A stretch of 64,000 nucleotides of DNA from a virus: IMG/VR virus record IMGVR_UViG_3300045988_161245, positions 128,001-192,000 of that record; one strand, given 5' to 3'. The first letter of the stretch is position 1. Each line of letters opens with the position of its first letter. Under the pieces are notes generated by a model that was given only the letters and a program-made list of their open reading frames with translations, was not told the origin of the DNA and did not search any database. The translations under genes were made by a program, and so were the position numbers. Shown one piece after another: positions 4,258-61,912 of the stretch.

Positions 4258-4273
4258 TTGTATATTTTTATTA

Positions 4274-4302
4274 TTGCAATACCTTTATAAATATCATATG
4301 AT
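4274..4302 (+). promoter_or_regulatory. sigma-A-type promoter for the LRR gene
   Basis: TTGCAA (4274-4279), a 17-nt spacer, then TATGAT (4297-4302). It sits in the 74-nt gap after the tail gene stop, about 30 nt upstream of the GGAGG RBS and the ATG at 4332. Confidence 0.55.
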
Positions 4303-4331
4303 ATTGATAAAATATTTTATGGAGGTATTGT

Positions 4332-5510
4332 ATGAAAAAGAATTTGTTATTTGTTTTTCTTATGCTTTTTCTTATTTTTCAATTGCCGGTCAATACATAT
4401 GCTATTGATGCATCGTCAGTTATTGGAAAAAGAGTCCAAGTTGGTGATAATTGTTATGCATATGTAGAAGATTTAGGAAATCGAAAATACACACTGCATC
4501 TCGATGGATATGGAAATTTATATGAAAAATCCACATTATCAGAAGAAGCAAAAATGATTATTAATTTTGGATCATCTAAGGTCATAATTTCGAATGGGAT
4601 ATCTAAAATACCAGATAGATTTTTTAGTGCACTTGGACTTAATATTATAGAAAATCATTCATCAACATTACAAATTGGAAGTTTTAACTTTATATTTGGA
4701 AGTTCTCCACAAGTTGAATATTATTCATTACCTCAAGATTTTAATCTTGCAGACAACGTGTATCAAGTGACCAATTGTCCAGAAAGCTTTACTACATTTG
4801 TAGACATTAGAGAAAAGAAACAAATAAATTTTGAATATACAATGTACTTTTCTGATGTTGCAAAAAGTGTAATTGTTCGTGATGGAAATAAGGCAATTAC
4901 CAACTATATGTTTACAAGATGCCCTAATCTTTCTGAATGTACAATACCTGCATCTGTAACATATATAGATCCTAAAGCATTTGCAGACAAAAATAAAATT
5001 ACTATTCGTGGATATTCTGGATCATATGCAGAAAAATATGCAAAGAAAAATAAAATTAAATTTGTATCTATAGGAACAACTATTAACCAGAATAAAGTAT
5101 ATAAGGTTGGTGCTTACAATTATAAATTTAATTTAAGCAATAATACAGCAACACTTGTATCTTCTGCGTCTAAAAATATTAAAAAAGTTACTGTTCCAAA
5201 TAAAGTAACTTATGCTGGAAAAACATTTACAGTCACAAATATTGCAAAAAATGCATTTAAAAATTGTACTAAGCTAACAAAAGCTACCATTGGAAGTAAC
5301 GTTACTCAAATTGGAGCATCTGCATTTTATAAATGTAAAAAGCTTCAAACAATAAAAATAGGAACCACTAAATTAACAAAAATTGGATCAAAAGCATTTA
5401 ATACACAATCTTCTAAACTTACACTGAAGATTCCAAAATCAAAATCAACATATAAAAAATTGATTACAAAATCAAAAATATCAAAAACAGTAAAATTCAA
5501 ACTGTTTTAA
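4332..5510 (+). CDS. secreted BspA-type leucine-rich-repeat (LRR_5-like) protein
   Basis: The N-terminal Sec signal is MKKNLLFVFLMLFLIFQLPVNTYA followed by IDAS. The C-terminal half has repeats such as IAKNAFKNCTKLTKATIGSNVTQIGASAFYKCKKLQTIKIG, typical of BspA-like cell-surface LRRs. GGAGG RBS is present. Confidence 0.7.
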   Translation: MKKNLLFVFLMLFLIFQLPVNTYAIDASSVIGKRVQVGDNCYAYVEDLGNRKYTLHLDGYGNLYEKSTLSEEAKMIINFGSSKVIISNGISKIPDRFFSALGLNIIENHSSTLQIGSFNFIFGSSPQVEYYSLPQDFNLADNVYQVTNCPESFTTFVDIREKKQINFEYTMYFSDVAKSVIVRDGNKAITNYMFTRCPNLSECTIPASVTYIDPKAFADKNKITIRGYSGSYAEKYAKKNKIKFVSIGTTINQNKVYKVGAYNYKFNLSNNTATLVSSASKNIKKVTVPNKVTYAGKTFTVTNIAKNAFKNCTKLTKATIGSNVTQIGASAFYKCKKLQTIKIGTTKLTKIGSKAFNTQSSKLTLKIPKSKSTYKKLITKSKISKTVKFKLF

Positions 5511-5591: not shown

Positions 5592-6038
5592 ATGAAATTA
5601 ACAAACGCAACAATTTATGACATTATCGGAGCAGTTAACAAATTTAACAATGCGAAAGGTAAAACAGCTTTTATCCTCTTCCGTACTCTTCGCAAGCTTA
5701 ATGAAGAAATCAAAGATTGTGATGAACAGAAAAACAAGTTAATTCAGAAATATGGAAAAGAGGTTGAAGGAGGCGGTATCGCTATTCCTCGTGATGATGC
5801 AGAAGCAACTAAGAATTTTATGGAAGAGTTCACTCCTATCTTACTCTGTCCAATTGATGTTGATATTCCACAGCTCACCGAAGAGGAATTTAATGATTTG
5901 GAAAATGTTGATGCTCCTAATGCAGGACTAACAGACTTCGATATTATCTATACATTTCTTGTTAAAAAGCCAGAGTCAAAGAAAGAAGAAACAGAGAAAG
6001 TTGATGCAGAAGTTGTTGATGATAAAGCTGCAGAATAA
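5592..6038 (+). CDS. hypothetical protein (acidic, late module)
   Basis: AAAGGAG RBS 8 nt upstream, coding-like composition, no recognisable motif. Confidence 0.6.
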   Translation: MKLTNATIYDIIGAVNKFNNAKGKTAFILFRTLRKLNEEIKDCDEQKNKLIQKYGKEVEGGGIAIPRDDAEATKNFMEEFTPILLCPIDVDIPQLTEEEFNDLENVDAPNAGLTDFDIIYTFLVKKPESKKEETEKVDAEVVDDKAAE

Positions 6039-7436: not shown

Positions 7437-10400
7437 ATGTCATTTAAAGATTCAAAAGCACAAATATTGGCTAATTCAGCTTCCGATGATAGTGATATCT
7501 CTACCATAAAGGCTGATTTAGCCACTACTGCTGTTGTTGACGATGGATATGTATTATGCACAGATGGACGATATGTTATCTATGATGAATACTATGATAA
7601 TTCATATTCAACAGTGGATAAATTAAAAAATGTAACAGTAGACTCTTCACAGATCAATATTGTTCAAGAAACAAATAGTCAGTATATTCCATTCCGTATT
7701 CCGAGGTATTGGGATGGTATTGACCTGATGAAGATGCTGATTCAAATCAGATACGAAAATGTATCTACTAAAAAAGGACAAGTATCTACAGCTGTAAATG
7801 TTGCATCAAGTACAACAAATATTACGTTTGGTTGGTTAGTTGATCAGAATGTTACTGCTATCGCCGGTGATGTCAGATTTGAAATTATGGCAACCGGAAC
7901 AAATGAAAAAGGCAATACATATGTTTGGAGAACAAGACCAAATGGTAGACTTACTGTTCTTGAAGGGTTAAATTATGACGGTATTATTGAACCGTCTAAG
8001 GATTGGTACACAGGATTTGTAGCAACCATAATGGGACATGTTGATGAAGCTAAGAAATATGCTGATCAGGCAAAAGCCTCTGCAGAATCCGTAGATGTTA
8101 ATACTATTAAGGCGGACGTAAAAAAATCTGTAACAGTAGATGTGAACGCAAATCTTGCAGAAAATTATTATAACAAAACAGAGATTGATACTAAGGTTAA
8201 AACACTCAATGATGCAATCAGTAATATTGATAGCTTAAAAAATCTTAAGGTCGAATATGATAACACAACTGGAAGACTTGTATTTAAAGATGGTACTGTT
8301 ATTCTGACAACTATCACAATTAACAGTTTATCAAACTTAAATGTTACTTATGCCGTTGAAGGCGGTAAGGGTAAGCTTACTTTTAAAAATGGCGAAACAG
8401 AAATTCAGTCTGTGGAACTTAGCTCTATTGAACCGTCTGCACAGTGGACAGCTGCTCTAAAAGAGGAAATTAATACAGGAGTTGATACAAAAATCAGTCC
8501 TGTATCAGAAAAGGTAAACGCTGTGGAATCTTCAGTAACTGACCTTTCTAAAAAGGTTGAAACAAATACTTCTGATATTACAGCGTTAAAAACAAAGACA
8601 ACAGAACTTGAAAAAGCCGATGAAGTAATTCGTTCTACTGCTTCTGAGGCAAAAAATACAGCGGATATTTTAAAGCAGAATATTGCCGACTATGATTCGC
8701 AGTTTAACACGATCAACGGTGACATTACCAATATTCAGTCTGATATTGATGAAATTAAAAAGAATCCAGCTGCATCTGAGTATGATGTAGATTATGTTGG
8801 TAGTACATTTAGTTGGATGAAAAATGGAGAAGTTCTTAAAACATTTACAATCCAAAGCGGAGGTGGTGGCGGATCTGATACTTCAACTATCACGATTGAA
8901 CGTGTAACCCCTGCAGATGCAATCTTCTTACTTGGAGATAAAGCAGAAATCGAATACACATTTAGCTCTGTTGATAATACTGGCGATACAACTGGTGATG
9001 GTACAGCAATTTGGAAAGTTGGAAATACAATTGTATCAACAACCACTGCTTCTCAGGGAACAAATAAGGTTGATTTAACAGAGTATTTATCAGTAGGCTC
9101 TAATCAGATTAGAGTTAGTATCACGGATAGCTTTGGAACAATGTCATATAAAACTTGGACTGTTACTATTGTAGAATTTAAGCTTGAAAGTACATTTGAT
9201 GATACACTGATTTACACTGATACAGACGTAGTATTTAGATATACACCTTATGGTAATGTAAATAAGACCATTCATTTTATCTTGGATGGACAGGAATTAG
9301 AATCCGTAACAACACAGGCTTCCGGTCGTATTATATCATACAATATTCCAAAACAGGAACATGGTGCTCATTTCCTTAAAGTATATATGACAGCAACAGT
9401 AAATAATAAAGATATTACTTCTTCTACTATTTACAAGGATATTGTGTGTGTTGATCCGGCAAACAGAACTCCTATTATCGGATGCTCACAGCAAGAATTT
9501 ACTGCAAAACAATATCAGGCTACAAGTATTAAATATGTTGTTTATGACCCAGCTCATAATCCTGCTACCGTTAAGTTGTCTATTGATGGAAAAACAGTTT
9601 CTACATTAACTGTAGATAGAACCGCACAAATTTGGAGTTTCAAGTCTTCTGAAATTGGTCAGAAAAATCTTACTATCTCATGTCAGAAAATCACAAAAAT
9701 TCTTACCGCACATATTGAAAAACTTGATATAGATGTAAATCCAATTACTGCAAATCTTGCGTTCGACTTTAATCCAGTTGGTTTATCTAATGGTGATGAA
9801 AATAGACTTTGGAGTGATAAAAATCATCCAGAAGTTGCTTTAACTGTATCAGATAATTTTGACTGGACGAATGGTGGTTATCAGATTGACGATGAAGGAA
9901 ATCAGTATTTCTGCGTAAAAGCAAGTACTACTGCTTCTATTAGTTATAATCTGTTTGCCAAAGACCCAAAACAAACTGGTGCTGAATTTAAGATTATTTT
10001 CAAAACTAAAAATGTAAGAAATGCTTCTGCCACTTTCTTGTCATGTCTCGATGGATTGGCAGATTCTAACATTGGACTTGAAATGAAAGTACATGAGGCA
10101 AACATTTATACTTCTACAGACGATCTTTATTTCCCATATTCCGAAGAAGATATTATTGAGTATGAATATAATATTAACTCAATTGATACCAAGAATACAA
10201 CAGCAACATCTATTATCATGACGTATGAAGATGGTGTTGGTGGAAGACCTATTATTTATGATAATTCACATAGATTACATCAGTACACTCCTGCTCCAAT
10301 TTCTATTGGATCTCCAGATTGTGATGTATTAATTTATAGGATGAAAGCCTATAGTGCAGCATTAACTGATTCTGATGTTTTATCTAACTTTATTGCAGAC

Positions 10401-42517: not shown

Positions 42518-44860
42518 TTATTTCCCCTTTCTTTTAATTGTGCTTAACCATGTACTTCTTGCATTGTTACTTGTGTTCAGGCATTTGTAGAATGCCTGTG
42601 GTTCAGCACACAATAAACATCTTTTCTTTGCTCTTGTAAGCATTGTATATAACATACAGTTGTCTAATAATTTATAATGGGTATTATCAATTACACAAAT
42701 AACTGTTTTCCTGGAAGATCCTTGCATTTTATGAGTTGTTAAAGCATAAGCCATATCTAAATCTGCAAGTTCACTTCCTTCGTATCTAATTACTTTATCT
42801 TGCTTCTCATAAACTATATTGTTATCTTCATCAAAAACTAACCCAACGTCTTTTTCTACTTTAGGACCAAATGACTGATATGTAACTTCACAATAAGTTA
42901 CTGGCTTTTTACCACTCATATCTTCTCCAATAAATGTGATATATCCGATTTCACCATTAAATACGTTTCGATCATAATCATTTACTGTCTGGACAACTTT
43001 ACACCCAAGCTTAAATTCTTTTTCACCAAATGAGATTGACTTCCTTTCATCTTTAAGAAGAACATCTACAATATCTTTATTTAACTCGTAAGCACTGTTT
43101 AAACATCCTTCTCTACGAGGTACTGCTATACCAACATTATCAACACCATCTGTTTCAACAGCTGAGAAGAACATTTTTAATGCAAGTTGATGAAGTGAAT
43201 CTCTAGTATCTCTGAACATGTAATACATGTCCTGTAACTCGCCATGAACTAATTTTTTTGATGTAATAACTTCCGTAATGGGGTTTTTATTATCTCGAAT
43301 GAGATTTGCATCGGTAAGAATTCCAGATTTTTCTGCTTGACGCATAACTTTTGTAAGTTCATTGATATTTTCTTTGGGTAAACAATGAATCAGATCAGAG
43401 AATATATTTCCAAAACCAATAGGTGGCAACTGTTTATAGTCTCCACAGATGATGATCTTTGTATTATCACCTATAGCTTCTAACCATGCTAAGAAGATTT
43501 GTACATTTACCATAGAAGCTTCATCCATTAATACTACAGGAGATATAAGTTTGCAATTCTTATTGTAATCAAACTTATTTGGACCATGACATCCTAGCGT
43601 CCTATGAATTGTCATTGCAGGATAGTCTGTAGCTTCTGTGATACGCTGTGCTGCCATTGCTGATAATGCACAGGCAGAAATATTGTGATTTGCCAGAGAA
43701 TACGCACGAATAATTCCACGTAAAATTGAACTTTTACCAGTTCCGGCTTTTCCTGTAACGAAGCTTATACTCTGCGTTAGTATAGAGCGTATAATCGCCT
43801 TTTGCTCATCAGTATAGGAAAATCCTTGCTCATGTTCCGCTTTAGCGATTCCTGCCTCTATTTTATCGTTTTCTATAGGCACTGGTGACTGTTTGTTCAA
43901 TCTTTCTTGAATGATAGATAAAATTTTCATCTCAAGGTTGTAATATAGCTTGAGTCCGATCCTGTTTTCATACTGGTGTAAGAACGAATTATTTTCAAGG
44001 ACTCCATCAAACACATCTATACACTCTGGAGCTGAATCTTCAACTGCAGCTTTTAAAATATCTACACTACACCAAGTATGTCCATCATTCTCACCAATCT
44101 CAGCAAGGTAATAAGAAATGAAAGCAATACATCTCTCTCTGGATTCAAGAAGTTCAGGTTTTAATTTAAGTGCCAATTTATCAACTTTCTTGAATCCAAA
44201 CCCTTTCATGGAACATAAATAGTATGGATTTGTTTCAATCTTCTGTTTTAATAGTCCAGGGTTTGGCTCATTACTAAGAAGGTTTTTAATCATTGTGAAT
44301 GTAACACCTAACGGTTTTAGTAATGTGATAATATCTGAAATAAGGTAATTATCAATTATCTTGTCTTTTATTTTCTTCCATGTTTTTTCACGAACACCTT
44401 TAACTTTTGAAAAATCAATTGTATCTAATTTACCGTCAGCTACATCATTTACAACATTTGGATATGCAGCAAGTAATGAATCTGCAACACTCTCAGGGAT
44501 AAGTGATTTAAGAAAAACTTTAGAATCTTCCACAGTCTGCGGAGCCAATGCATAAACTGTGATTGGTACATATTGTGCCCCATATTTTTTATCATCTTTA
44601 TATGTTGCAGTAATCTTATATTCTGAACCAACACACAGTTGCTGCATTCGTCCGGCTAAAGTTCCGACAAAAGTATCACCATGCTCATCTCCGAACAAAT
44701 CTTTGTGAACAGTTATCTTCTGACAATTAGGAAGTTGATCAGTTGTATTGAATGAATAAACTCCCCAAGACGTATTTTCACTGTAGAAGCGCTCATATGA
44801 AATTCTGGCTGTAAATTCAAACTGCTGATCATCATTACTAAATTGTTCTGAATAACTCAT
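42518..44860 (-). CDS. RecD/RecD2-like SF1 helicase
   Basis: Walker A VTGKAGTGKSS, DEASMV, CGDYKQLPPIG, and the C-terminal ALTTHKMQGSS...YTMLTRAKK. Confidence 0.8.
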   Translation of the reverse strand: MSYSEQFSNDDQQFEFTARISYERFYSENTSWGVYSFNTTDQLPNCQKITVHKDLFGDEHGDTFVGTLAGRMQQLCVGSEYKITATYKDDKKYGAQYVPITVYALAPQTVEDSKVFLKSLIPESVADSLLAAYPNVVNDVADGKLDTIDFSKVKGVREKTWKKIKDKIIDNYLISDIITLLKPLGVTFTMIKNLLSNEPNPGLLKQKIETNPYYLCSMKGFGFKKVDKLALKLKPELLESRERCIAFISYYLAEIGENDGHTWCSVDILKAAVEDSAPECIDVFDGVLENNSFLHQYENRIGLKLYYNLEMKILSIIQERLNKQSPVPIENDKIEAGIAKAEHEQGFSYTDEQKAIIRSILTQSISFVTGKAGTGKSSILRGIIRAYSLANHNISACALSAMAAQRITEATDYPAMTIHRTLGCHGPNKFDYNKNCKLISPVVLMDEASMVNVQIFLAWLEAIGDNTKIIICGDYKQLPPIGFGNIFSDLIHCLPKENINELTKVMRQAEKSGILTDANLIRDNKNPITEVITSKKLVHGELQDMYYMFRDTRDSLHQLALKMFFSAVETDGVDNVGIAVPRREGCLNSAYELNKDIVDVLLKDERKSISFGEKEFKLGCKVVQTVNDYDRNVFNGEIGYITFIGEDMSGKKPVTYCEVTYQSFGPKVEKDVGLVFDEDNNIVYEKQDKVIRYEGSELADLDMAYALTTHKMQGSSRKTVICVIDNTHYKLLDNCMLYTMLTRAKKRCLLCAEPQAFYKCLNTSNNARSTWLSTIKRKGK

Positions 44861-47800
44861 TATACTTTTGCCCCTTTCTTACGCATTTGCTCAAGCCACA
44901 TATTATATGTTTTTATTTTTTCAACAAAAAAATGTTCTTCTCTTTTTCTTCCTAATATTGCAAGACAGCTTCCTTTTTTTATATAGTCAGAATACTCTTT
45001 TAGCTGACTAGACCATATTGTCGCTTCAATAATTCCATATGGAGTATATAAATCAAGATATGCAAACTGATTTCCATTTTTATCTTTTTTCCTTTTGACA
45101 TCAACAATCACACAGAACAAAACTGTTTTGTCGCCATCCATTACAAGGTCCCAATCAATTTTAGTATATTTATAAGCATCTTTTAACGGATCATTAGTTA
45201 AGAACATTGATAAAGTATCAAATTCCCATAGATATTCATCTTTAGCGTATTTTTCTTGAAAATCTTCCATATGCTTTTTATATTTTATGTTTTGTTCTTC
45301 TAAAAACTTTTTCTCTTTTACTTTATTATAGTCATTCAAAAGTTTTTCTTTGTTTACTTTTTTGCCATCTCTATAATCTTCTACGTTTAATCCAAATGGA
45401 ATTAATTTAGAATATGGAGATGGAGTTGTTGTAACAGGTTTGTATTCTTTTCTAACAAACGTGGAACCTGCATATTTTTTCAATGTTGACATCTTATTTT
45501 TAGTTGGAATACCGCCAGCTTTAATAAGGGTGATAATCGCTGTTTTGTCCTGCACTTTTTCGATGAAATCATTTAAATTCTTGTAAGGTCTAAAATCTAT
45601 AATTTTGTCAACAATACTGTCACCAAGACCTTTTACTGCCAATAATCCAAACAAAATTTCATTGTTCTCTGCAATTGCAGTAAATGATTTGTTCGATTTA
45701 TTTACATTTGGTGGAGAAACTTTTATTCCAAGACGTTTGCAATCATTTATTACAATACTAATTTTTTCTACTTTGTCTGATTTTGACGTAAGAAGTGCAG
45801 CCATAAAATAAACTGTGTAGTGAACCTTTAGATATGCCGTAAGATAAGATAACAAACCATATGCCACAGCATGACCACGATTAAAACAATACTCTGATTG
45901 TTTTAGCATTAGCTGCCATATTTCAGATAACTCATTTTCTGTCCAATTTTTCTTTTTCAATCCAGATCTAAAGTCTTTTTCGAGACCAGCCATTTTATCT
46001 TTTAATTTTTTGCTTATTGCGCGCCTCGCATTGTCTATGTCTTCTTCTGGAAATCCTGCATATCTAAACAGTTGAAGAGCTTCTTCTTGGTAAAGTAAAA
46101 CTCCTTGAGTTGTTATAAATAGCGTTTTTAAATCTTCATGTATTGTTTGTGCACTTTCCGGATGCAATTTATTTTGACAGTATATAGGAAAGCTATCTTT
46201 TGTACCAGGTCTATTAGCAGCGTTTACTACGATAATATCCTCTACATTGTCTGCTTTAGCTTCAATACACATTCTCCTTGCTTCTGCAGATTCCATCTGG
46301 AATATGCCAACAGTGTGACCTGGTTTATAAACTTGATCGTAAACATTTTTGTCTGAAAGATTCAAATGGTTGATATCTACATCTTCCCATGTAATTCCTG
46401 CCATATTTAACGTATCGTCAATAATATCAAGTGTTTCAAGTCCAAGGTAATCCATTTTAATCAATCCAAGATCATCCATCGCATTATGCATCTCGAACTC
46501 AATCATAATGTTTCGTTCTTTATCATAACAAAGTGGCGCATAATCTGTTACAGGAGTTGGCGTAATTAAAGTACCAGCAGCGTGTCTTCCCATTGATTTC
46601 GGAAGACCTTCTACATCCATTACATATTTAAACCACAATGGGAATTTGTTATATACATCATCAAGCTTTGGATTTTTACTTAGAATATCTTTTAAAAGAA
46701 CATCTTTTTCCTCTTCCTCTCCAAGATCATTAAGTGTTTTGATTGTTGGAATCATTTTTGCAACATCATCTCTCAATTTATAAGGAATCTGCTTATAGTA
46801 TGGAGAATCTTCTTTTTCATCAAGTACTTTACCAATATCTCTAATTGCAACTTTTGTACTCAAAGAATTGAATGTACAAATTGGAGCAACATTTTCTTTA
46901 CCAAAAAGTTCTTCTGATATTTCAACCATTTCTTTACGTCTACGCTTTGAAATATCCCAATCAAAATCTGCCATAGACTTTCTTCCAAGGTTTGCAAATC
47001 GTGAAAAATCAAGCCCCCATCTTACACTGTCAATCTGTGTGACGTTAAGCATAAATAAACACAAACAATTTGCACCAGACCCACGAGAATATCCTATAGG
47101 AATTTTTCGTCTTCTTGCTTCTTTTGCAAGCATATACAGCATAATAAAATAGTCTGTATAATCAACTGCATATAAAACTGGCAGCTCTGTTTCAAGACGT
47201 TTTTTTCGTTCATCTTGATCCTCTTTTGACATATGACCAAATTTTTCTTTGAATGTTTTAAAAACTAAATATCGTAGATATTCTTCGTGATTTTTATATG
47301 GACCATCAATTTTGACCTTCGGCATAATATTGCCTTTATTTAGCCCAATATCAATATCTTCAATAATAGAAGAAATATTATTACTTTCTTGCAAACCTTT
47401 ATCAATTACAGCTTTTGGGAACTGATAAGATAATTTCTGATATATTTCTAATTCTTTCTGAAGGTAACAATCAATATAACTTTCTCCAACTTCACGTCCT
47501 TCACCAATTTCTACAAACATTGCATGAGAGTCAATTAGAGAATCACTTAACATATGCGCATCTGTTGTAATAGTATATGGAAGATTATGTTCATTGGCGA
47601 AATCAAAGATAAGTTTATTTGCTTCTGCCTGTGCTTCTGTAGTATGTGACTGTAATTCACAAACAACGTAATCAAAAATATCCTTAATGTCCTGGATAAA
47701 TTGTTCTGCCTCTTTATATCTTCCATCAGTCAGATATCTGCTAAGTCTACCGGCTTGGCAAGCAGTTAAGCAAATAATGCCTTTACCAAGATTATTATCT

Positions 47801-48177
47801 TTGATATATTTCATATCAATTCTTGGTTTTTTATATAATCCTTCTGTTCTCGATACCGATGTTATCTTTAGTAAATTCTTATAGCCTTGCTGTGTTCTGG
47901 CAAGAAGTACCATATGGTAACGTGGCTGCTTATAATCTTTTGTATCAGCTTTCCATGTCATATCATCTACTTCGTATATTTCGTTTCCGATTATTGGCTT
48001 TATTCCTTGCTTTTTGCACTCTTTTACAAAGTTTACAATGTTTGACATTGAACCATGATCTGTTATAGCCATCGCTTTCATTCCATTATCTTTTGCAAAT
48101 TTTACTGCTTCTGGTACTTTTAAAATGGAATCAAGTAATGATCCTTGCGCAGTGTGCATATGTAACGAACTGTACAT
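44860..48177 (-). CDS. dnaE: DNA polymerase III alpha subunit (DnaE-type) with PHP domain
   Basis: N-terminal PHP LHMHTAQGSLLDS...AITDHGSM. The central region has GRHAAG, DFD... and LGLIKMDYLGLETL. Confidence 0.85.
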   Translation of the reverse strand: MYSSLHMHTAQGSLLDSILKVPEAVKFAKDNGMKAMAITDHGSMSNIVNFVKECKKQGIKPIIGNEIYEVDDMTWKADTKDYKQPRYHMVLLARTQQGYKNLLKITSVSRTEGLYKKPRIDMKYIKDNNLGKGIICLTACQAGRLSRYLTDGRYKEAEQFIQDIKDIFDYVVCELQSHTTEAQAEANKLIFDFANEHNLPYTITTDAHMLSDSLIDSHAMFVEIGEGREVGESYIDCYLQKELEIYQKLSYQFPKAVIDKGLQESNNISSIIEDIDIGLNKGNIMPKVKIDGPYKNHEEYLRYLVFKTFKEKFGHMSKEDQDERKKRLETELPVLYAVDYTDYFIMLYMLAKEARRRKIPIGYSRGSGANCLCLFMLNVTQIDSVRWGLDFSRFANLGRKSMADFDWDISKRRRKEMVEISEELFGKENVAPICTFNSLSTKVAIRDIGKVLDEKEDSPYYKQIPYKLRDDVAKMIPTIKTLNDLGEEEEKDVLLKDILSKNPKLDDVYNKFPLWFKYVMDVEGLPKSMGRHAAGTLITPTPVTDYAPLCYDKERNIMIEFEMHNAMDDLGLIKMDYLGLETLDIIDDTLNMAGITWEDVDINHLNLSDKNVYDQVYKPGHTVGIFQMESAEARRMCIEAKADNVEDIIVVNAANRPGTKDSFPIYCQNKLHPESAQTIHEDLKTLFITTQGVLLYQEEALQLFRYAGFPEEDIDNARRAISKKLKDKMAGLEKDFRSGLKKKNWTENELSEIWQLMLKQSEYCFNRGHAVAYGLLSYLTAYLKVHYTVYFMAALLTSKSDKVEKISIVINDCKRLGIKVSPPNVNKSNKSFTAIAENNEILFGLLAVKGLGDSIVDKIIDFRPYKNLNDFIEKVQDKTAIITLIKAGGIPTKNKMSTLKKYAGSTFVRKEYKPVTTTPSPYSKLIPFGLNVEDYRDGKKVNKEKLLNDYNKVKEKKFLEEQNIKYKKHMEDFQEKYAKDEYLWEFDTLSMFLTNDPLKDAYKYTKIDWDLVMDGDKTVLFCVIVDVKRKKDKNGNQFAYLDLYTPYGIIEATIWSSQLKEYSDYIKKGSCLAILGRKREEHFFVEKIKTYNMWLEQMRKKGAKV

Positions 48178-54714: not shown

Positions 54715-55812
54715 TTACCACTCTTCATCCTCTTCGTCAGCTTCTCCGAGACTACTATCTCCCCATCCACTATCGTCAGAATCGCTACCATAGCTTTCCT
54801 CGGCTTTATTAGCGTTTCTAATCTTCTGCATTGCTTCTTCGATAGCTTCCTTAGAGTACAGGTCTTTTTCAATGGTAGTCGGGTCAGCACCAGTCACAAT
54901 GTACTCACGTTTAACAGGGGTAGAAACTTTCTCCATTTCGTCCTCTTCTCCCCATCCATCATCTACAGCAACTTCTTCTACCTGAACGGAAGCCTGTACA
55001 TGACCGGATACTTTAAGTGCCCAATATGGTTTCACTTTCTTCCTAAACGTCATTGCAAGTTTTTTCTGCTTCTCATCAACAGGGTCAAGAATAAACTCAA
55101 CGTCCTCAATATTGGAATAAGTTACAACCTTTCCGGAGATAACATATCTTCCTGTTTCTTTATCGTCTTCAACTTCTTTCTCAATTCCCATAAAGACAAT
55201 TACCTGGTTGAAGTTGTTTTGAGCTTTAAATTTTTCATTATCAAATTCACATGGGGCACAAAGAGAAATCTGAGATGGTTCCATAGATTTGTATCGTTTG
55301 ATGTTACCTTTATCATCACGATTGCTGCGGTAAGAAATGCTACCTTTTACAAAAACGCTTTCTCCGTCTTTAAGATTATTACGAATCTCGGCACAAGCAT
55401 CATAATCGGTAAGTACTTTTTTATCATTTACCTGTTCACCTTTTTCATTGGTTACTTTAGTAAGTCCAAGATTTTTACCAATAAGTCTAAATCCTTCATT
55501 CTTCGGATCTTCCGCAAATTTAAATCTGTTTGCCCAGGATACCGGCTGTGATGTTCCTTTTTTACCTTTTTCTTCTGGCTTTTTATAGAAGTAAACTTTC
55601 TCCTGCTCAATTCCAGTAAATCCGATATATAAATCTCGACCTTCATCATATTCAAGACCGAAGTTTACGATTCGCATTTCCTTACCAGTTCGTGTCTGCT
55701 TTTCAGTGTAGAAATTATCTTTCTTAGTTCCCTTAACTACACCTTTGATCATAAAATTACCTTTTGTTTCTGGGAGATTAAATAATCTCTGTTTTTTAGT
55801 ATTGTTCTCCAA
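54715..55812 (-). CDS. putative single-stranded DNA-binding protein
   Basis: Lies in the replication-module context. The extremely acidic C-terminal tail ends in an aromatic residue (...GEADEEDEEW), as in T7 gp2.5 and bacterial SSB tails. OB-fold not verified. Confidence 0.4.
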   Translation of the reverse strand: MENNTKKQRLFNLPETKGNFMIKGVVKGTKKDNFYTEKQTRTGKEMRIVNFGLEYDEGRDLYIGFTGIEQEKVYFYKKPEEKGKKGTSQPVSWANRFKFAEDPKNEGFRLIGKNLGLTKVTNEKGEQVNDKKVLTDYDACAEIRNNLKDGESVFVKGSISYRSNRDDKGNIKRYKSMEPSQISLCAPCEFDNEKFKAQNNFNQVIVFMGIEKEVEDDKETGRYVISGKVVTYSNIEDVEFILDPVDEKQKKLAMTFRKKVKPYWALKVSGHVQASVQVEEVAVDDGWGEEDEMEKVSTPVKREYIVTGADPTTIEKDLYSKEAIEEAMQKIRNANKAEESYGSDSDDSGWGDSSLGEADEEDEEW

Positions 55813-55995: not shown

Positions 55996-56511
55996 TTAAT
56001 TATCAAAATGATCATAATACCGATAAAGGCTTACTACATCGTCAAGATTATCTTCTGATCCGTCATAGAAAACATACGAACCTTGCAGATAGCCACCAAG
56101 TACTTCTTCAATATATGTCCTTACTATTCTCAAAGTTTTACCAGAATAATAGCTGTCATCTACGAAAATAAATGGCTGATTCTTATAAGAATCCAATTTC
56201 CAATTAGAATATTGAATTGGTTTACCCTTTCTTAAACTGCCATTAATATACTCAATACTGCAGTCGCTTAAAAACCATTTATATTTCAATCTCAATGCTG
56301 CAATCTTTTCTCCAATTTCACCTGATATGATGATATTTTTTACACTTGATTGTGAGATATGTGTTAGATATGATATTAGAAAATCTTCATCGTTTTTGAT
56401 TAAATCATCTAGTTCATTGAAATATTCTTCTCCACCGCCGTGAAGATCAATACACTTTTTTGTAATTTGACTCATTCGGTGCTTCAGTTCATTTAGTGTT
56501 AACCGTTTCAT
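55996..56511 (-). CDS. type I phosphoribosyltransferase-domain protein
   Basis: The PRPP-binding signature is PFIFVDDSYYSGKTL. The N-terminal helical region has no recognised function. Confidence 0.55.
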   Translation of the reverse strand: MKRLTLNELKHRMSQITKKCIDLHGGGEEYFNELDDLIKNDEDFLISYLTHISQSSVKNIIISGEIGEKIAALRLKYKWFLSDCSIEYINGSLRKGKPIQYSNWKLDSYKNQPFIFVDDSYYSGKTLRIVRTYIEEVLGGYLQGSYVFYDGSEDNLDDVVSLYRYYDHFDN

Positions 56512-56560
56512 AACTTATACTTCCTCGTTTTTGTTTAGTTTTTACTTATTTCTAAGCAAG

Positions 56561-56618
56561 TACACAGGATAGGATTCGAACCTACATTCTAATGTCCTGC
56601 CATTTAGACGACCTGTGC
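56561..56618 (-). ncRNA. 58-nt truncated tRNA-like element (no anticodon arm)
   Basis: GCACAGG / CCTGTGT acceptor, D-arm-like GTCTAAATGGCAGGAC, T-arm GTAGGTTCGAATCCTAT. Only 8 nt occupy the place of the anticodon arm. Confidence 0.4.
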
Positions 56619-56742
56619 TACCGATTATATAAAATGAAAGAAATTTTAATTGAGACACTGTAATTTTTATTAATACCCTATAGGTGATTCGATATAATTA
56701 ATGCTCCAAGAGCGCAATACATATAAATCACAGTACCTCAAA

Positions 56743-56825
56743 TACGGATGATGGGACTCGAACCCACAAGGTTGTTAACCGCTGGAACCTAAATCCAGTC
56801 TGTTTTCCTATTTCAGCACATCCGC
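56743..56825 (-). tRNA. tRNA-Leu (anticodon TAG), type II with a long variable arm
   Basis: Hand fold: GCGGATG...CATCCGT acceptor, anticodon arm CTGGA TTTAGGT TCCAG, variable arm CGGTTAACAACCTT, T-arm GTGGGTTCGAGTCCCAT. It aligns well with Bacillus tRNA-Leu. Confidence 0.85.
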
Positions 56826-57210
56826 TTATTTTGGCAAGAACCTGTATAACTTGCCAGTAACTCTTATACTCTCACTTATACAAACAAGGTGACGTGAGCG
56901 AATTACTTTTTAGAAAAAGATCCTTGTTATATTCTTCTTCTCAGATTTTTATGTAGGCGACCATCGCAGAAACCTACTGCCTTATCTCTGCTACTCAACA
57001 GATCTCGTATATCTCTTACGCTGAATCTGGCTTCCGCAGATTACGGACTATCGTAGAATCCACACAGGACTCATATGAGATATTTTTGGCGACGGTTTTT
57101 CGTGCTTTATTTAATTGTATTTTGTATTTTTACGCGCTTTGCTTAATAAATCTTTTGAGTTCACATTCACCGGTATCCTGATTTTTACTACAAAATTTTT
57201 ATTAAGCAAG

Positions 57211-57284
57211 TGGACCATCTGTGATTCGAACACAGAAATCTTTCGCTTATGAGGCGACTGCCTTAACCGTTTGGCTAATGGTCC
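57211..57284 (-). tRNA. tRNA-Met/Ile2 (anticodon CAT)
   Basis: GGACCAT/ATGGTCC acceptor, D-arm GCCAAACGGTTAAGGC, loop CTCATAA, T-arm CTGTGTTCGAATCACAG. Confidence 0.8.
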
Positions 57285-57511
57285 TTAACTTGATAGAGCA
57301 AACCCTGAAATCTCTATCTCTCATTTATTTTAAGACTAATGAGTTTATCCCACATATCAAACGCTTAATGCGGCTACATCAAGCTGTGGCCGACCATTTG
57401 TACATCGAAATGCTAACCATAGCGCATTCGATCATAAGGATTGAAAGTCTGTGTTTTTCTACTCGGTTTATTAAGGTCGTATGAAAATACATCTAAAAAC
57501 AGTGGACCTAG

Positions 57512-57584
57512 CTGGGCTGGCAGGATTCGAACCTGCGAAATGGTAGAGTCAAATTCTACTGCCTTTCCACTTGGCTACAACCCA
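57512..57584 (-). tRNA. tRNA-Gln (anticodon TTG)
   Basis: TGGGTTG/CAGCCCA acceptor, D-arm GCCAAGTGGAAAGGC, anticodon arm GTAGA ATTTGAC TCTAC, T-arm GCAGGTTCGAATCCTGC. It parallels E. coli tRNA-Gln. Confidence 0.85.
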
Positions 57585-57652
57585 ATAATGAGATAGTATA
57601 TCGTTCCATTCTTCTACTATCTCGTTCCGCAATGTAAAATGGAAACGGAACA

Positions 57653-57724
57653 TGGAACTAAATGGAATCGAACCATTGTTTACCTGTTATACCAACAGGT
57701 GTGCTGCCACTTCATCACAACCCA
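57653..57724 (-). ncRNA. tRNA-like element with an unpaired acceptor and an aberrant anticodon loop
   Basis: The 5' TGGGTTGTGATGAAGTGGCAGCA is nearly identical to the tRNA-Gln 5' end. The stem CCTGT/ACAGG has loop TGGTATA (GTA, G at position 33). The T-arm is AATGGTTCGATTCCATT. The 3' TAGTTCC cannot pair with the 5' end. Confidence 0.4.
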
Positions 57725-58258
57725 AAAACAATTTCATATCTTCAGTATCTACTCATCTTACTTTACGCTTAGACTTTCTTCGAGAGATCTGCGTAGCCAT
57801 CTTCACATCCACACCTCAGATGATATGTATCTACAATAGTTACTTCCAATATGAAATTATTTCTCTTTCAAATTCCTTCTATTAAGTCTATATGGTAACA
57901 ACATAGTGTAATCTACATTAGAAGTTCATCAAAAGAATTTTATTATATCCATATACATAAAATATATAATGCTCCTTAATTACAATTCCCACATTTAACG
58001 TATGTGTAGAGCTATAACGCCATTTGAATATCTGATAAGTATCAGCACTTTGGAGGGATATATCGTTTCACCACATCCACAGGTTAACCACGCCTTATTC
58101 AAAATGGATAGCATAAGAGTCCATCAGCCATAGGAGCAGACTCCACGGAGTTCCATAACGATGACTTTTGGATTTATTATGTCAATGATTGTTTTGCACC
58201 GCCTATATTCGTAACTATGCTATTCAATTTATATTCTAATAGGAAGAAACTCTTCCAG

Positions 58259-58332
58259 AAGAACATATGGGATTTGCACCCATGACGGTCACAACCTATG
58301 TGGTTGCCGCTCTCCTCCTGAGCTAATGTTCT
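58259..58332 (-). tRNA. tRNA-like gene, CAT anticodon with A at position 33
   Basis: Perfect acceptor AGAACAT/ATGTTCT, D-arm GCTCAGGAGGAGAGC, anticodon arm GCAAC CACATAG GTTGT, 7-nt variable region, T-arm ATGGGTGCAAATCCCAT. Confidence 0.5.
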
Positions 58333-58637
58333 TTCCAAAAACAAAGATTTAATAAATATTACAAACATTTTTGAGATCTCAATCTTCTTATAAGGCTTAC
58401 GCCGATCCCACTCGACCCTGGAACTTCTGAAGATTTTTATGAACTCTGCTTCATTCATAAAAGTTTAGCCATTGAAGAATACCTCTAGCAGTTTCGGTTT
58501 CTTACGCATAGCTTCAAGATTTCAGAACTACTGCGCTCTGTAGGTGGTGGATCATACACGATATTGTGTAGTCAAACGGTACGGCAACTCGATGTTGAGA
58601 AGCGTTTTCTGTGACACCACATATCTGAAATCTCTAA

Positions 58638-58704
58638 CAGGACATCTGGGAGTCGAACCCAGTACAGACTGCTCAAAGTCTCTTCACCATCGAAGTCATG
58701 TCAC
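58638..58704 (-). ncRNA. 67-nt tRNA-like element with a 6- or 8-nt anticodon loop
   Basis: Acceptor GTGACAT/ATGTCCT (one mismatch), D-arm CTTCGATGGTGAAG, AGACT TTGAGC AGTCT (or AGAC TTTGAGCA GTCT), T-arm CTGGGTTCGACTCCCAG. Confidence 0.4.
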
Positions 58705-58761
58705 ACCTCAACACTTTAGGAGGTATAAGAAATAAGAAATCTATTTGGGTAGCTAACCCAA

Positions 58762-58830
58762 ATCCTGGATGCGGATTCGAACCGGCAAATACATGAGTTT
58801 CATGTGTTATAACCATTTAACTATCCAGGA
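58762..58830 (-). ncRNA. 69-nt tRNA-like element with a 5-nt anticodon loop and a bulged T-stem
   Basis: Acceptor TCCTGGA/TCCAGGA, D-arm GTTAAATGGTTATAAC, ACATG AAACT CATGT, T region TGCCGGTTCGAATCCGCA. Confidence 0.4.
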
Positions 58831-58958
58831 CGTTCCAACTGCGGCTTTGTTAGAACTAAGAAACAAGGTTTTAATAACCGCATTGATTTATTTATAAGAT
58901 GAACTTCACCACTTATCAGCCTTGTACAAACCACAGAGCCGATATAATCATGCTACAA

Positions 58959-59077
58959 AACTTTTTCAAGGTTTTTATCAAACTTTGGAACTTATCAACT
59001 TTACTACGTGAACTTTATATCAAAAATAAGCTTTGAATTTTGAGCTTTAAGGTTTGAACTTTCTATCTTTAAACTTT
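58959..59077. repeat. iteron-like array: 8-9 copies of (A/G)(A/G)CTTT at about 14-16-bp spacing
   Basis: AACTTT or AGCTTT starts at 58959, 58981, 58997, 59011, 59029, 59043, 59057 and 59072, plus AACTTA at 58989, all on the same strand in an ORF-free region. Confidence 0.6.
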
Positions 59078-59360
59078 ACAGTCATCCAAAATAAGTATTA
59101 TATAATCTACCAATTATAGAATTTTGTAATGTTCAGATTATCATTCTGACCTTTTTTACATTAATTTTTGAGGCCAGCTTGTTTAATTTTTTACTTTACT
59201 CTATGCTGGCTGAAAGACTAAAGGATTATAGTTCAGTGGTTTTCGATAAGCAATGAAGGAAATCTTTTATACAACTATTCGTATAACAATGGCTATTTAG
59301 CTATTATATGGATCAAAAATCGCTTGTATAATTTTTAACTAATAATTCACTGACCATTTA

Positions 59361-60011
59361 TTAATACTCAATTGTAACTGTTGTTAATGCATTACTTGTG
59401 CTTAAAACGGAGTCTACTTCAGCTTCAAATGAGGAAATTTCGTCAGATAAAACACGGATTTTATTTTGTACATTAATCGGATCAACTAACGCCCATGTGT
59501 TAAGATCAACGTACTGCTGTTTAGCTTTTGTAACTTCATCGGTAGAAGTTTTACCCTCTTTCTGTCCAAAAAGACCAGTTACATAATTTTCTGATTTACT
59601 TTCAAGAGTTTCATTCTCTTTATTTGTTTTTGCCTGTGCCTGAGAAAGCTGTTGCTGCATTCTGTCAAGCATCTGTCTCTTAAACATCATACTGTTATTT
59701 TTCATGTTGATTGCTTCTGCTACAGTACGTTCTTCTTCGTTTTCTCCAATTTTAATCTTAACTTTTGTTACTGCATTTGAAAGCATTACTGCTCTCTGCA
59801 GAGCTTCAAGTCTACTCATAAGATCTACATCTTTGTCGTAACATCCTGTAACAATCTTCTCATATTCATCAACATCCATTCCAGAAATTTTTGACTGAGA
59901 ATTTTTCTTGCAAGATACAAAAATTGAATTGTAAATCTCACTCTGGATTCTGTCTTTAAGGATTTTGATTTCTGCTAATGCTTTATGTACTGTCATAGTT
60001 TCTTTCGTCAT
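59361..60011 (-). CDS. coiled-coil protein, possibly DIP1984-family-like
   Basis: AAGGAG RBS. It shares architecture with the 173-aa ORF at 60707-61228: an N-terminal LxKLxxRI-type helix and a C-terminal ...VDxxNxxxKIxxLSDEISxFExxVDxxLxxSN... The family assignment is tentative. Confidence 0.5.
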   Translation of the reverse strand: MTKETMTVHKALAEIKILKDRIQSEIYNSIFVSCKKNSQSKISGMDVDEYEKIVTGCYDKDVDLMSRLEALQRAVMLSNAVTKVKIKIGENEEERTVAEAINMKNNSMMFKRQMLDRMQQQLSQAQAKTNKENETLESKSENYVTGLFGQKEGKTSTDEVTKAKQQYVDLNTWALVDPINVQNKIRVLSDEISSFEAEVDSVLSTSNALTTVTIEY

Positions 60012-60082
60012 AATGTTCTTCTCCTTTAAATTGAATTTTATTCTTTAAATTTTTAACTTTGAAATACTCATTTCTGAGTTAA

Positions 60083-60154
60083 CTGCACCTGTTGGAATCG
60101 AACCAACATCTGATGATCCAAGGTCATCCGTGATAACCATTACACTAAGATGCT
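60083..60154 (-). tRNA. tRNA-like gene, TTG (Gln) anticodon with C at position 33 and an A1-A72 mismatch
   Basis: AGCATCT/AGGTGCA acceptor, D-arm GTGTAATGGTTATCAC, anticodon arm GATGA CCTTGGA TCATC, T-arm GTTGGTTCGATTCCAAC. Confidence 0.5.
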
Positions 60155-60706
60155 TTATATTGACGGTTGTTACACCGTCATATATGTCTTCGTCAGACAA
60201 ATTTTTATTCACTCAGATTCGCTACTTTCTAATCCGTTCTCTTATGAACTGCTGCTTCAGTCACCTGGCAGATTCGCCCTTGTTCCATACCAATCACTTG
60301 TATGTACTCTCTATTTTCCAAGTTAGGCTTCGCCTCATTTATATGAGGGTCGTAAGTTAAGTTTATCGTCATTCTTATCTGGACTCTCTATTATTTACTT
60401 CTCAATTGTTTTTTCATCTATTCTTAAAAAGTATCTCTAACCGAACTTGATACCGAAAAGTTTTTAATTACAGTTACTAATTAATTTGAGCCTTTATAAT
60501 CTGGATCTAAGAATTAAATATGCAGACCTATCAATTAACCTTGCTGCATTACTATTGAATAAATACCTTACTGAGCTTTAATTCTATCAATAAACTCAAT
60601 CAATAACTTACTATACTTGTATTAAATGTATATTTGCTTTTATATAAATAATCTATATGTAAAAGTAACTGTAATACGGAAGATTGATTACATTAATTAC
60701 TTCCCA

Positions 60707-61228
60707 TTAGAGATCAATATCAATCTCAAATTTGTACTCTACTGAACTGTTTACGATATTAAGCTCTTCCTGAATTTCTGAAATTTCGGTATACACACTG
60801 TCATATTTTTTCTTTGCGTCCTCAAGATCATAATTCAGATAAGTGTATTCAATATCTTTATTTAATGAAGTATTTCGTTTTTTCTTCTGTCTGGTTGCAA
60901 GACCACTATAGATGCCTTTTTCTCTTTCGAGTATAGCTAATCTAATAATGTTGTCACCGACAGTCAATCCATTCTTCATAACTACTGAGTTATTAAACAG
61001 AGACTTTGCATGTCTGATTGTAATTATCTTCCTATCAATCTCATCAATCTGAGCAATCACTTCATTTAAATTGAATTCTGCTTCCTGCTCTGCTTTAATT
61101 TGATCGTAATTCTCGGTTACTGCTACAACAAATGTTGACATTTTAGAAATCTTATCGGTAAAAATACCTTTTTCTTGCTCTAACTTCTTAATCAGCTTAT
61201 TAGCTGCATCAGATGTAACTTTTATCAT
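60707..61228 (-). CDS. coiled-coil protein, possibly DIP1984-family-like (paralogue of 59361-60011)
   Basis: GGAGG RBS. LTVGDNIIRLAILEREKG...RNTSLNKDIEYTYLNYDLEDAKKKYDSVYTEISEIQEELNIVNSS fits the general pattern of that family. Confidence 0.5.
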   Translation of the reverse strand: MIKVTSDAANKLIKKLEQEKGIFTDKISKMSTFVVAVTENYDQIKAEQEAEFNLNEVIAQIDEIDRKIITIRHAKSLFNNSVVMKNGLTVGDNIIRLAILEREKGIYSGLATRQKKKRNTSLNKDIEYTYLNYDLEDAKKKYDSVYTEISEIQEELNIVNSSVEYKFEIDIDL

Positions 61229-61270: not shown

Positions 61271-61912
61271 TTATTCTGAAAAATCACAAACTTTAATTTT
61301 TGTAATTACTCTTCTACCCATTCTGTCAAGCATTTCGACAGCAGGTCTGCATACAAGTCCTTCCATATTAGCTGTTCCAATATGAGATTTTGGTTTGGTC
61401 TTTACAAAATCAATTGCTTCTTGAAGTGTACCGGTAAGAACAATATCAACTATATCAATTCCAAAACTCTTTGCAATATCTTCTACAGCATCACGTTTTA
61501 GCCATAAGTTTTGATCTGGAAGATACACATCAAAAAGAATGAATGATACGTCATCTCTATAAAGTCCACCACCCTTTTGAATTTTAGGACCATATCCTTC
61601 ACCAAACAGGATTACATTCATTTCACCAAACTTCTGCTCAAACATTTCTTCATTAATAATACCGCCAAATAGTTCATTTAGTTTGTTTACCAATGGAACA
61701 GGAATTTGTGCTCTTTCTGTACGTCCCTGGAACGAAACTTTATGTCCATCCCAAACAACACCAATGTTTGTGCCATCAATTTTTTCTGAACAAAGCCATT
61801 TATTATCTTTTAAATATTCAACAGTTTCATTTCTGAACTTACAATCAATAAGCTTCTTTGTGCCATCGTTATCTCTTTCAAACGGTGTATCAATTTTTAT
61901 ATAAGGAATCAT
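61271..61912 (-). CDS. ATP-dependent RNA ligase (Rnl2 / DRB0094-like nucleotidyltransferase)
   Basis: Motif I is SEKIDGTNIGV, motif III LFGEGYGPKIQ, motif IV MEGLVCRP, motif V ITKIKV. Confidence 0.7.
   Translation of the reverse strand: MIPYIKIDTPFERDNDGTKKLIDCKFRNETVEYLKDNKWLCSEKIDGTNIGVVWDGHKVSFQGRTERAQIPVPLVNKLNELFGGIINEEMFEQKFGEMNVILFGEGYGPKIQKGGGLYRDDVSFILFDVYLPDQNLWLKRDAVEDIAKSFGIDIVDIVLTGTLQEAIDFVKTKPKSHIGTANMEGLVCRPAVEMLDRMGRRVITKIKVCDFSE

Follow-up and report, generated by a model that had tools for sequence, protein, structure and literature searches.

tRNA genes of phages are usually taken to help with codon usage or to replace tRNAs that defence systems of the host have destroyed, and odd members of such arrays are dismissed as pseudogenes. 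tRNAs and tRNA-like structures are also known as punctuation marks or handles for the processing of other RNAs, as in mitochondrial polycistrons, in the mascRNA of MALAT1 and in the tRNA-like/pre-microRNA units of murine gammaherpesvirus 68. For RNase P, RNase Z and the CCA-adding enzyme, the determinants on a tRNA are its acceptor stem, T arm and elbow, and in the tRNA maturation of Bacillus subtilis the tRNAs without an encoded CCA are the substrate class of RNase Z. The tRNA cluster of phage T4 also encodes the stable species 1 and 2 RNAs (rnaC and rnaD), which are processed by the tRNA maturation machinery. Here, we describe an island of tRNAs, tRNA-like elements and structured RNAs at positions 56520-60706 of a 64,000-nucleotide (nt) stretch of viral DNA, hereafter the window (positions 128,001 to 192,000 of IMG/VR record IMGVR_UViG_3300045988_161245). 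Four of the tRNA-like elements are unable to decode but have conserved bodies, and we tentatively suggest that they serve as processing handles in an operon of noncoding RNAs.

Two further types of RNA have been described beside phage tRNAs. GOLLD and ROOL are large structured noncoding RNAs whose function is not known and which are often found beside tRNAs in phage or prophage DNA (PMC5737381). Theta ribozymes, which resemble the hepatitis delta virus (HDV) ribozyme, occur at the 3' ends of gut-phage tRNAs (PMC10879173).

The island and its relatives

From about 25.8 kb to the end of the window every gene is on the minus strand, and so are all tRNAs, tRNA-like elements and other RNAs of the island. 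Close relatives of the island are found in human-gut viral contigs of 57-222 kb, mostly of 180-220 kb. SPbeta-type YorF/YorH domains adjoin the island in relatives, homologues carry labels of Lachnospiraceae and Clostridia from metagenome-assembled genomes, and the DnaE-type polymerase of the window (44860-48177) is 49% identical to its counterpart in Clostridium phage Amboise. Therefore, the window is probably part of a large human-gut phage with a Bacillota host. A DNA similarity search against the GenBank phages gave tRNA-sized matches only and nothing longer.

Relatives were collected with the 216-amino-acid (aa) protein encoded in the island as anchor, which gave 10 near-identical and 5 distant loci from IMG/VR and 77 loci from metagenomes. 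A comparison with about 30 relatives sorts the odd elements into three kinds. Individual loci are referred to by number; L139 (71% protein identity) and L140 and L141 (82%) are relatives of intermediate distance, and L140, whose coding sequence (CDS) DNA is 82% identical to that of the window, is used as the benchmark for conservation. The island is a mosaic, in which modules may be present, missing or exchanged between genomes that share 90-98% identity elsewhere.

The initial annotation, made by hand folding, had described the region as poor in open reading frames (ORFs), with three canonical tRNAs and at least six odd tRNA-like elements. Its description holds. The sole ORF of at least 100 aa in 56512-60706 is the gene of the 216-aa protein (59361-60011), and the three canonical tRNAs (E2-E4) are called on the minus strand by both ARAGORN and the Rfam tRNA model (RF00005, gathering score 29). 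The six odd elements, E1 (56561-56618), E5 (57653-57724), E6 (58258-58332), E7 (58638-58704), E8 (58762-58830) and E9 (60083-60154), are all present where they had been placed, as judged by ARAGORN, Rfam and folding. ARAGORN calls five tRNAs on the minus strand, the canonical Leu-TAG, Met-CAT and Gln-TTG as well as E6 ('Met'-CAT) and E9 ('Gln'-TTG). The loops of E5 to E9 are non-canonical and E1 has no anticodon arm. With the Rfam model, E2, E3, E4 and E9 score 51.6-60.1 bits, E8 (43.8 bits) and E1 (39.3 bits) are also above the gathering score, and E5 (27.2 bits) is below it. Only in E2, E3 and E4 does the anticodon loop have 7 nt, with U at position 33 and a purine at 37.

Along the minus strand, the order is an intron-related element, E9, the CDS, a RAGATH-27 RNA, a promoter-like block, a leader, E8, a hairpin and E7, followed by RNA-C, E6, RNA-A, E5, the Gln tRNA, the CAU tRNA, a hairpin, RNA-B, the Leu tRNA, a hairpin and E1. 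Each of the structured RNAs is bracketed by tRNAs or tRNA-like units (E7/RNA-C/E6/RNA-A/E5 and Met/RNA-B/Leu), and no CCA is encoded on any tRNA or tRNA-like element of the island.

tRNA-like elements that cannot decode

The fold of E1, E6, E7 and E8 is a cloverleaf that has a T-loop and in which the D loop contains GG. However, these elements lack a usable anticodon. In E1, which is only 58 nt long, 2 nt stand in place of the anticodon arm. E8 has an anticodon loop of 5 nt and E7 one of 6 nt. In E6, the 'CAT' lies in an effectively 5-nt loop, with A33, a pairable C32-G38 and a stem of 6 bp. As the anticodon region is either absent or has a loop of 5, 5 or 6 nt, these four elements are unable to decode. 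E7, whose cloverleaf is the minimum-free-energy fold, is not called by ARAGORN and is absent from the Rfam tRNA list at E<=5, and E6, identified by its ARAGORN call and its fold, is likewise not in that list. The T-loop of E6 is unusual (UGCAAAU) and is retained in L139.

The bodies of these elements are under constraint, and their loops are free to vary. E7 and E8 are 98% and 94% identical to L140, compared with 82% for the CDS DNA. The region of E6 is 94% identical in L139, with surroundings at about 78%, and its loop differs both in sequence and in length, ACAUA (5 nt) in the window and ACCGGACA (8 nt) in L139. The loop of E7 is TTGAGC in the window and TTAAAT in L008 and L066, and that of E8 occurs as AAACT, AAACC or TAACC at a constant length of 5 nt. 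No indels are found in the bodies, whereas the length of the E6 loop differs. Variable columns make up 5 of 11 in the loops and 15 of 125 in the bodies (Fisher p = 0.011). Alignment across related phages had been proposed to separate odd loops that are functional, and therefore conserved, from decaying ones; the loop of E9 is indeed conserved, but those of E6, E7 and E8 vary on conserved bodies.

In the T-stem of E7, G45-C57 is replaced by U-A in L069, i.e. by two transversions in one lineage, and in E8 the pair G6-C63 appears as G.U and as A-U in relatives. All six stem substitutions of E1 found in relatives preserve pairing; the element itself is missing in L005, L008, L009 and L139. At the position of E8, the tRNA-like RNA of L139 is a different one, whose 'anticodon' stem has 8 bp and whose loop is UUUU. 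The group of relatives at about 50% identity also has a tRNA-like unit with a loop of 5 nt, which lies directly upstream of the gene of the 216-aa protein.

Structured RNAs between the units

The spacer between E6 and E5 holds RNA-A (57978-58223), a complex structured RNA of about 246 nt. In an alignment of the window, L139, L063, L009 and L008 over this spacer, compensatory double changes are seen in 17 of the 66 predicted pairs, and invariant single-stranded blocks lie between the helices. Coding by small ORFs was rejected as an explanation for the spacers, given that 57725-58176 has no minus-strand ORF of at least 40 aa and that the substitutions in helices are compensatory. No Rfam family matches RNA-A at E<=10 (551 nt searched). 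The matches of a covariance model of its two 3' domains, R1, are confined to the clade of the window and L139, and neither two pattern scans of IMG/VR (close relatives only) nor the covariance-model search found RNA-A beyond these.

RNA-B (56960-57096), of about 137 nt, lies between the CAU tRNA and tRNA-Leu. Compensatory changes are found in 9 of its 37 pairs (5 sequences), and an Rfam scan gave no match. RNA-A and RNA-B appear to be at least two RNA motifs that are undescribed in Rfam 15. The third structured RNA, RNA-C (58515-58635), follows E7 directly on its 3' side; it has an 11-bp closing stem and a z-score of -2.0, with three compensatory pairs among 10 variants.

Several units are followed directly by a long hairpin. 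The one 3' of the CAU tRNA has 70 nt (57140-57209, z-score -3.5) and the one 3' of tRNA-Leu 92 nt (56650-56741, 17-bp closing stem, z-score -2.1); E5 also has a long hairpin on its 3' side. The 5' strand of the 70-nt hairpin is CTTGCTTA. The initial annotation had found a trailer shared by two elements, and this trailer, which lies on the 3' sides of both E1 and E3 (the CAU tRNA), is real. It was considered as a promoter -35 element and rejected, since the window contains its 7-mer TTGCTTA 20 times against 17 expected, which is no enrichment, and the trailer is a hairpin strand after E3. E8 is followed by a terminator-like hairpin and then by the pyrimidine-rich block AGATTTCTTATTTCTTATACCTCCTA (58705-58763 for the hairpin and the block together). 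This block (58716-58741, between E8 and E7) is invariant in the window, L140, L069, L067 and L008. Even relatives at 80-83% identity have the block unchanged, and within it is ACCUCCU, a sequence similar to the anti-Shine-Dalgarno sequence of 16S rRNA.

Other RNAs are found in the islands or tRNA arrays of relatives. In relatives at 82% identity, an IscB-like ORF (RRXRR and HNH, 459 aa) with a HEARO omega-RNA (119 bits in L140) is inserted at the place of RNA-A (L140:7941-9485 and L141:5721-7100), where it replaces approximately 58192-57872 of the window. The tRNA arrays of relatives at about 50% identity contain int-alpA RNA (RF02996; L080:7696-7766 and 8406-8473, L081:10013-10088, L076:9643-9714 and L077:9216-9285), in some cases directly 3' of a tRNA.

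The protein gene and the promoter-like block

The only CDS of the island, on the minus strand at 59361-60011, encodes the 216-aa protein of the phrog_1491 family (PHROG E = 4.7e-48). This is a large family, with 1850 homologues that are all unannotated, and neither Pfam nor the PDB sequences contain a match. The AlphaFold model, which is confident (predicted local distance difference test score, pLDDT, 80.5), matches only the folds of uncharacterised phage proteins. The PHROG label 'tail fiber' is without support, and a comparison with the 173-aa neighbour, as a possible paralogue, gave no match. In relatives the gene always lies within a tRNA array. tRNAs flank it in about 70 loci, in which a tRNA or tRNA-like unit usually lies no more than a few hundred nt upstream of it, with a promoter-like block, then a tRNA, downstream.

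Shortly downstream of the stop codon lies a RAGATH-27 RNA motif (RF03100; 59172-59257, 87.5 bits with a gathering score of 76.1). Of 11 more distant loci that were scanned, 9 have the motif at the corresponding place behind the gene (76.7-92.1 bits). A RAGATH-27 pattern scan of IMG/VR yielded mostly false positives in coding sequences; the real occurrences were those in close relatives and one in L054, where it has no tie to tRNAs.

Beyond RAGATH-27, by about 100-200 nt, follows an AT-rich block with nine (T/C)AAAG repeats and a promoter-like end (58941-59077). The block is conserved in relatives: for most of the phages in which the neighbouring protein has about 50% identity, its DNA is 68-76% identical. 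Its end carries sigma-70-like hexamers, a -35 TTGAAA (58969-58964) and a -10 TATATC (58946-58941) separated by a 17-nt spacer, and both hexamers and their spacing are conserved in an alignment of 12 sequences. Judging from these motifs, the block is a predicted promoter of the downstream array. The following 58831-58940 is a putative leader of the array, with a conserved block GTTTGTACAAGGCTGATAAGTGGTG and five compensatory pairs. In relatives, a conserved leader also follows the promoter block, and the first tRNA of the array is then Leu, Pro, Ser, Trp or Thr.

Between RAGATH-27 and the promoter block, L077 (6795-6850) has a tRNA-like domain that is circularly permuted, and equivalents are present in L074, L075, L076, L078, L080 and L081. 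It consists of a T arm, a closed acceptor hairpin with a covarying stem and a D arm, in that order, an architecture that recalls the tRNA-like module of bacterial Y RNA (YrlA). The window is without such a domain.

Canonical tRNAs, a chimera and a probable unusual tRNA

The canonical members of the array are tRNA-Leu(UAG) at 56743-56825, a tRNA with anticodon CAU (elongator Met or Ile2) at 57210-57284 and tRNA-Gln(UUG) at 57511-57584. Their identities to L140 are 82% (Leu), 97% (CAU) and 79% (Gln). In L010 and L064 (8250-8324 in both), the CAU tRNA is near-identical except for a single C34-to-A change, which makes the anticodon AAU. At positions 5684-5758 of the closely related phages L087, L089 and L099, near-identical acceptor, D and T arms carry three different anticodon arms (Phe-GAA, Ile-GAU and Asn-GUU); these arms appear to have been swapped as cassettes.

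E5 is a chimera made by recombination, in which a 5' half of the Gln type is joined to a 3' part of the Tyr/suppressor type. The 25 nt at its 5' end and the flank upstream of them correspond to a Gln(TTG) type-A gene at the same position in L003, L005, L008 and L010, and the remainder corresponds to the 3' two-thirds of a tRNA that is intact, with the anticodon CUA, in L009, L063 and L068; the window copy has GUA. Two of the seven acceptor pairs are broken and the loop has G33 and U37. E5 is probably non-functional. In L140 and L141 the same scaffold has the anticodon UCA. According to the initial annotation, no element has a stop-reading anticodon and recoding is not the explanation. Both statements are correct for the window but overlook the amber and opal suppressor versions of the E5 scaffold, which has CUA or UCA depending on the relative (L009:8428-8502, L063:8315-8389 and L140:9647-9721) and a purine at position 33 throughout. 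Given these anticodons, some relatives may recode stop codons.

E9 is a different case. Its loop, CCUUGGA with C33 and G37, is identical across all relatives including L140, and differs from the canonical YUUUGAY or YUUUGGY loops, with U33, of all remaining Gln(UUG) tRNAs in related phages. In L140 the acceptor pair A4-U69 is replaced by C4-G69, a compensatory change, and the remaining stem changes keep pairing. The 1:72 position is an A.A mismatch in the window; position 72 alone varies (A, C or T), giving A.A, A.C or A-U with A1. The nucleotide diversity (pi) of E9 is 0.009, compared with 0.054 at third codon positions of the adjacent CDS. As the loop is kept and the acceptor change is compensatory, E9, with an Rfam score of 54.3 bits, is probably a real but unusual tRNA(UUG).

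A proposed tRNA-punctuated operon and its alternatives

We suggest that the island is a tRNA-punctuated operon of noncoding RNAs whose tRNA-like units serve RNase P and RNase Z as processing handles, although our confidence in this falls somewhat short of even. The minus strand would be transcribed from the promoter-like block at about 58969-58941 and also from upstream of E9. In the resulting transcripts the real tRNAs (Leu-UAG, CAU, Gln-UUG and probably E9) would alternate with E1, E6, E7 and E8 and with RNA-A, RNA-B, RNA-C and the long hairpins. E1, E6, E7 and E8, having lost a usable anticodon loop but retained acceptor stem, T arm and D-loop/T-loop elbow, without an encoded CCA, could then be cut at their 5' and 3' ends by the tRNA-maturation enzymes of the host. 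These cuts would release the neighbouring RNAs, as well as the mRNA of the 216-aa gene, with defined ends. We infer the transcription, the cleavage and the role of the released RNAs. The handle role is favoured because the conserved parts of the elements are the determinants of processing, the parts that are free to vary are needed for decoding only, and the structured RNAs are bracketed by the units. The units, with acceptor stem, T arm and elbow kept, also directly abut another RNA, as is expected of a handle. Among the options listed in the initial annotation, that of decoys or processing handles fits best, as the bodies of E6, E7 and E8 are 94-98% kept, their loops vary and the spacers hold covarying RNAs.

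However, several observations count against handles. The terminator-like hairpin after E8 would make this element a stand-alone small RNA, as would suit a decoy more than a handle. One mismatch (T2) is private to the window copy of E7, and E8 has two pair-breaking substitutions, each in a single relative. Formal tests of the covariation in E7, E8 and E1 are not significant by themselves, as few pairs vary: 67 of 500 shuffles reach the observed value for E7, 231 of 500 for E8 and 367 of 500 for E1. Further, the whole of 58510-59056 is conserved, so that within the closest relatives the constraint on the elements is inseparable from that on their flanks. Finally, several relatives lack E1 and E6, and in L140 the IscB element takes the place of RNA-A; individual modules are therefore dispensable.

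The tRNA-like RNAs could instead be products in their own right, abundant mimics that soak up or misdirect factors reading the acceptor, T arm or elbow. The targets could be host tRNA-targeting defence nucleases or toxins, or modification or processing enzymes. Conserved bodies with free loops, the data on which the handle role rests, are equally expected of mimics, and E8 is the first unit after the strongly conserved promoter-like block and is then followed by the terminator-like hairpin. An RNA ligase gene flanks the island, and phage tRNA loci have been described as counter-defence (PMC10264068, PMC11555353). We nevertheless consider mimicry unlikely. Anticodon nucleases read the anticodon loop, which is lacking or variable here, so that the elements would mimic the substrates of these nucleases poorly. 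Neither a defence nor an anti-defence protein was identified adjoining the units, and the structured RNAs between them are left unexplained. It is similarly doubtful that the island is a clade-wide noncoding-RNA operon that combines a new class of non-decoding tRNA mimics, sponging the tRNA-recognising machinery of the host, with RNA-A and RNA-B as new functional RNAs of the size of ribozymes or protein scaffolds.

Decay, also an option of the initial annotation, applies to E5 only. According to this explanation the odd elements are pseudogenes in a decaying, recombining tRNA array and the spacers are remnants of mobile elements. E5 is clearly a chimera, the island is a mosaic among relatives, an IscB/HEARO element sits at the place of RNA-A in some of them, a partial match to group I introns lies upstream of E9, and the window has private disruptive changes at T2 of E7 and position 72 of E9. 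However, E7 and E8 are better conserved than the CDS and than two of the real tRNAs, and the E6 body, including its odd T-loop, is 94% identical where its surroundings are at about 78%. E7, E8 and E9 show compensatory changes, the bodies have no indels while the E6 loop changes in length, and the spacers covary strongly. Apart from E5, pure decay is unlikely, and for the array as a whole we give this explanation little credence.

The least probable explanation, that the odd elements are decoding tRNAs whose anticodon loops are altered to escape host anticodon nucleases, as published for other phages (PMC10264068), can apply to E9 only, which keeps UUG with C33 and G37 in an invariant loop where the other Gln tRNAs of relatives have U33, and which shows a compensatory acceptor change; the suppressor scaffold of relatives also has a purine at position 33, but the explanation is inapplicable to E1 (no anticodon arm), E6 (5- or 8-nt loop), E7 (6 nt) and E8 (5 nt), which cannot decode.

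Flanks of the island

Directly upstream of E9 lies a conserved structured element (60165-60385) with a partial match to group I introns, chiefly to their 3' part. It can be aligned with the introns in L014 and L015 over the P9/3' region (BLAST, 77% over 71 columns and 83% over 52 columns) and contains one hairpin with compensatory changes. The group I intron model (Intron_gpI, RF00028) has no match in 60150-60720 at E<=10, compared with 84.6 bits in L014, and coding exons do not flank the element, which has an AT-rich variable spacer on one side and E9 on the other. It was rejected as a group I intron since the core model is unmatched, and we treat it, on the basis of the alignment, as a putative intron-derived element. 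A 32-nt similarity between this element and RNA-A did not extend in the alignment and is possibly due to chance. The introns in L014 and L015 interrupt a gene for a class II ribonucleotide reductase. In distant relatives (L014, about 4000-4640, and L013, 2113-2390), this gene contains two or more group I introns in tandem, with an exon of about 70 nt between them.

The RNA ligase gene on the flank of the island, noted earlier, was confirmed at 61271-61912 on the minus strand (PF09414, E = 3e-20). The ORF on the other flank (55996-56511), earlier named a PRTase, does contain a PRTase-like motif, FIFVDDSYYSGKT, but has no Pfam or PDB match. Between the island and the ligase gene, the 173-aa ORF at 60707-61228, upstream of the island, is hypervariable among relatives, with 55-75% of its columns variable. 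The variation is equal at the three codon positions, which suggests gene replacement and not divergence. A 365-aa ORF (54715-55812) has no Pfam match. Its C-terminal tail is acidic (…DDSGWGDSSLGEADEEDEEW), a typical feature of proteins that bind single-stranded DNA.

Comparison with known systems

The island was not assigned to any of the families with which it was compared. GOLLD and ROOL are much larger than RNA-A (about 246 nt) and RNA-B (about 137 nt), and the covariance models of GOLLD, ROOL and HEARO have no match in the window. With the phages that carry theta ribozymes the island shares a gut-phage tRNA array (Met, Leu, suppressor), an RNA ligase gene and a structured RNA directly 3' of tRNAs (PMC10879173). 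However, the Rfam models of the HDV family have no match at E<=5 (the published theta descriptor was not run), and the trailers of tRNA-Leu and the CAU tRNA, inspected by eye, start with T and C and not with the G required at the cleavage site.

As in the T4 cluster, a phage tRNA operon here also encodes extra RNAs. However, those of the island include tRNA mimics without a usable anticodon as well as several larger covarying RNAs, and no sequence similarity was found. E9, with C33, and the scaffold of relatives, with a purine at 33, resemble the nuclease-evading phage tRNAs (PMC10264068) in that a readable anticodon is kept, but most of the odd elements here cannot decode.

The logic resembles that of the handle systems. 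In both, a tRNA-shaped fold lies beside another RNA, the acceptor and T arm are kept and the anticodon function is dispensable, and here too the flanking RNA would, by analogy, be released by RNase P and RNase Z. The differences are that the island is in a bacterial DNA phage, that several different handles are mixed with real tRNAs in one array, and that the RNAs predicted to be released by cleavage are large structured RNAs and not microRNAs or mRNAs. In contrast to the usual view of phage tRNA genes, several of the non-decoding tRNA-shaped RNAs of the island are better conserved than the neighbouring protein gene and some of the real tRNAs. If they are handles, they would be the bacterial-virus counterpart of tRNA punctuation, and they would provide a simple rule for finding new phage noncoding RNAs, namely to search between tRNA-like units. 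If they are decoys, they would represent a counter-defence of a new, RNA-based kind. In both cases, two or more new RNA motifs come from the island, together with concrete substrates on which RNase P and RNase Z can be assayed.

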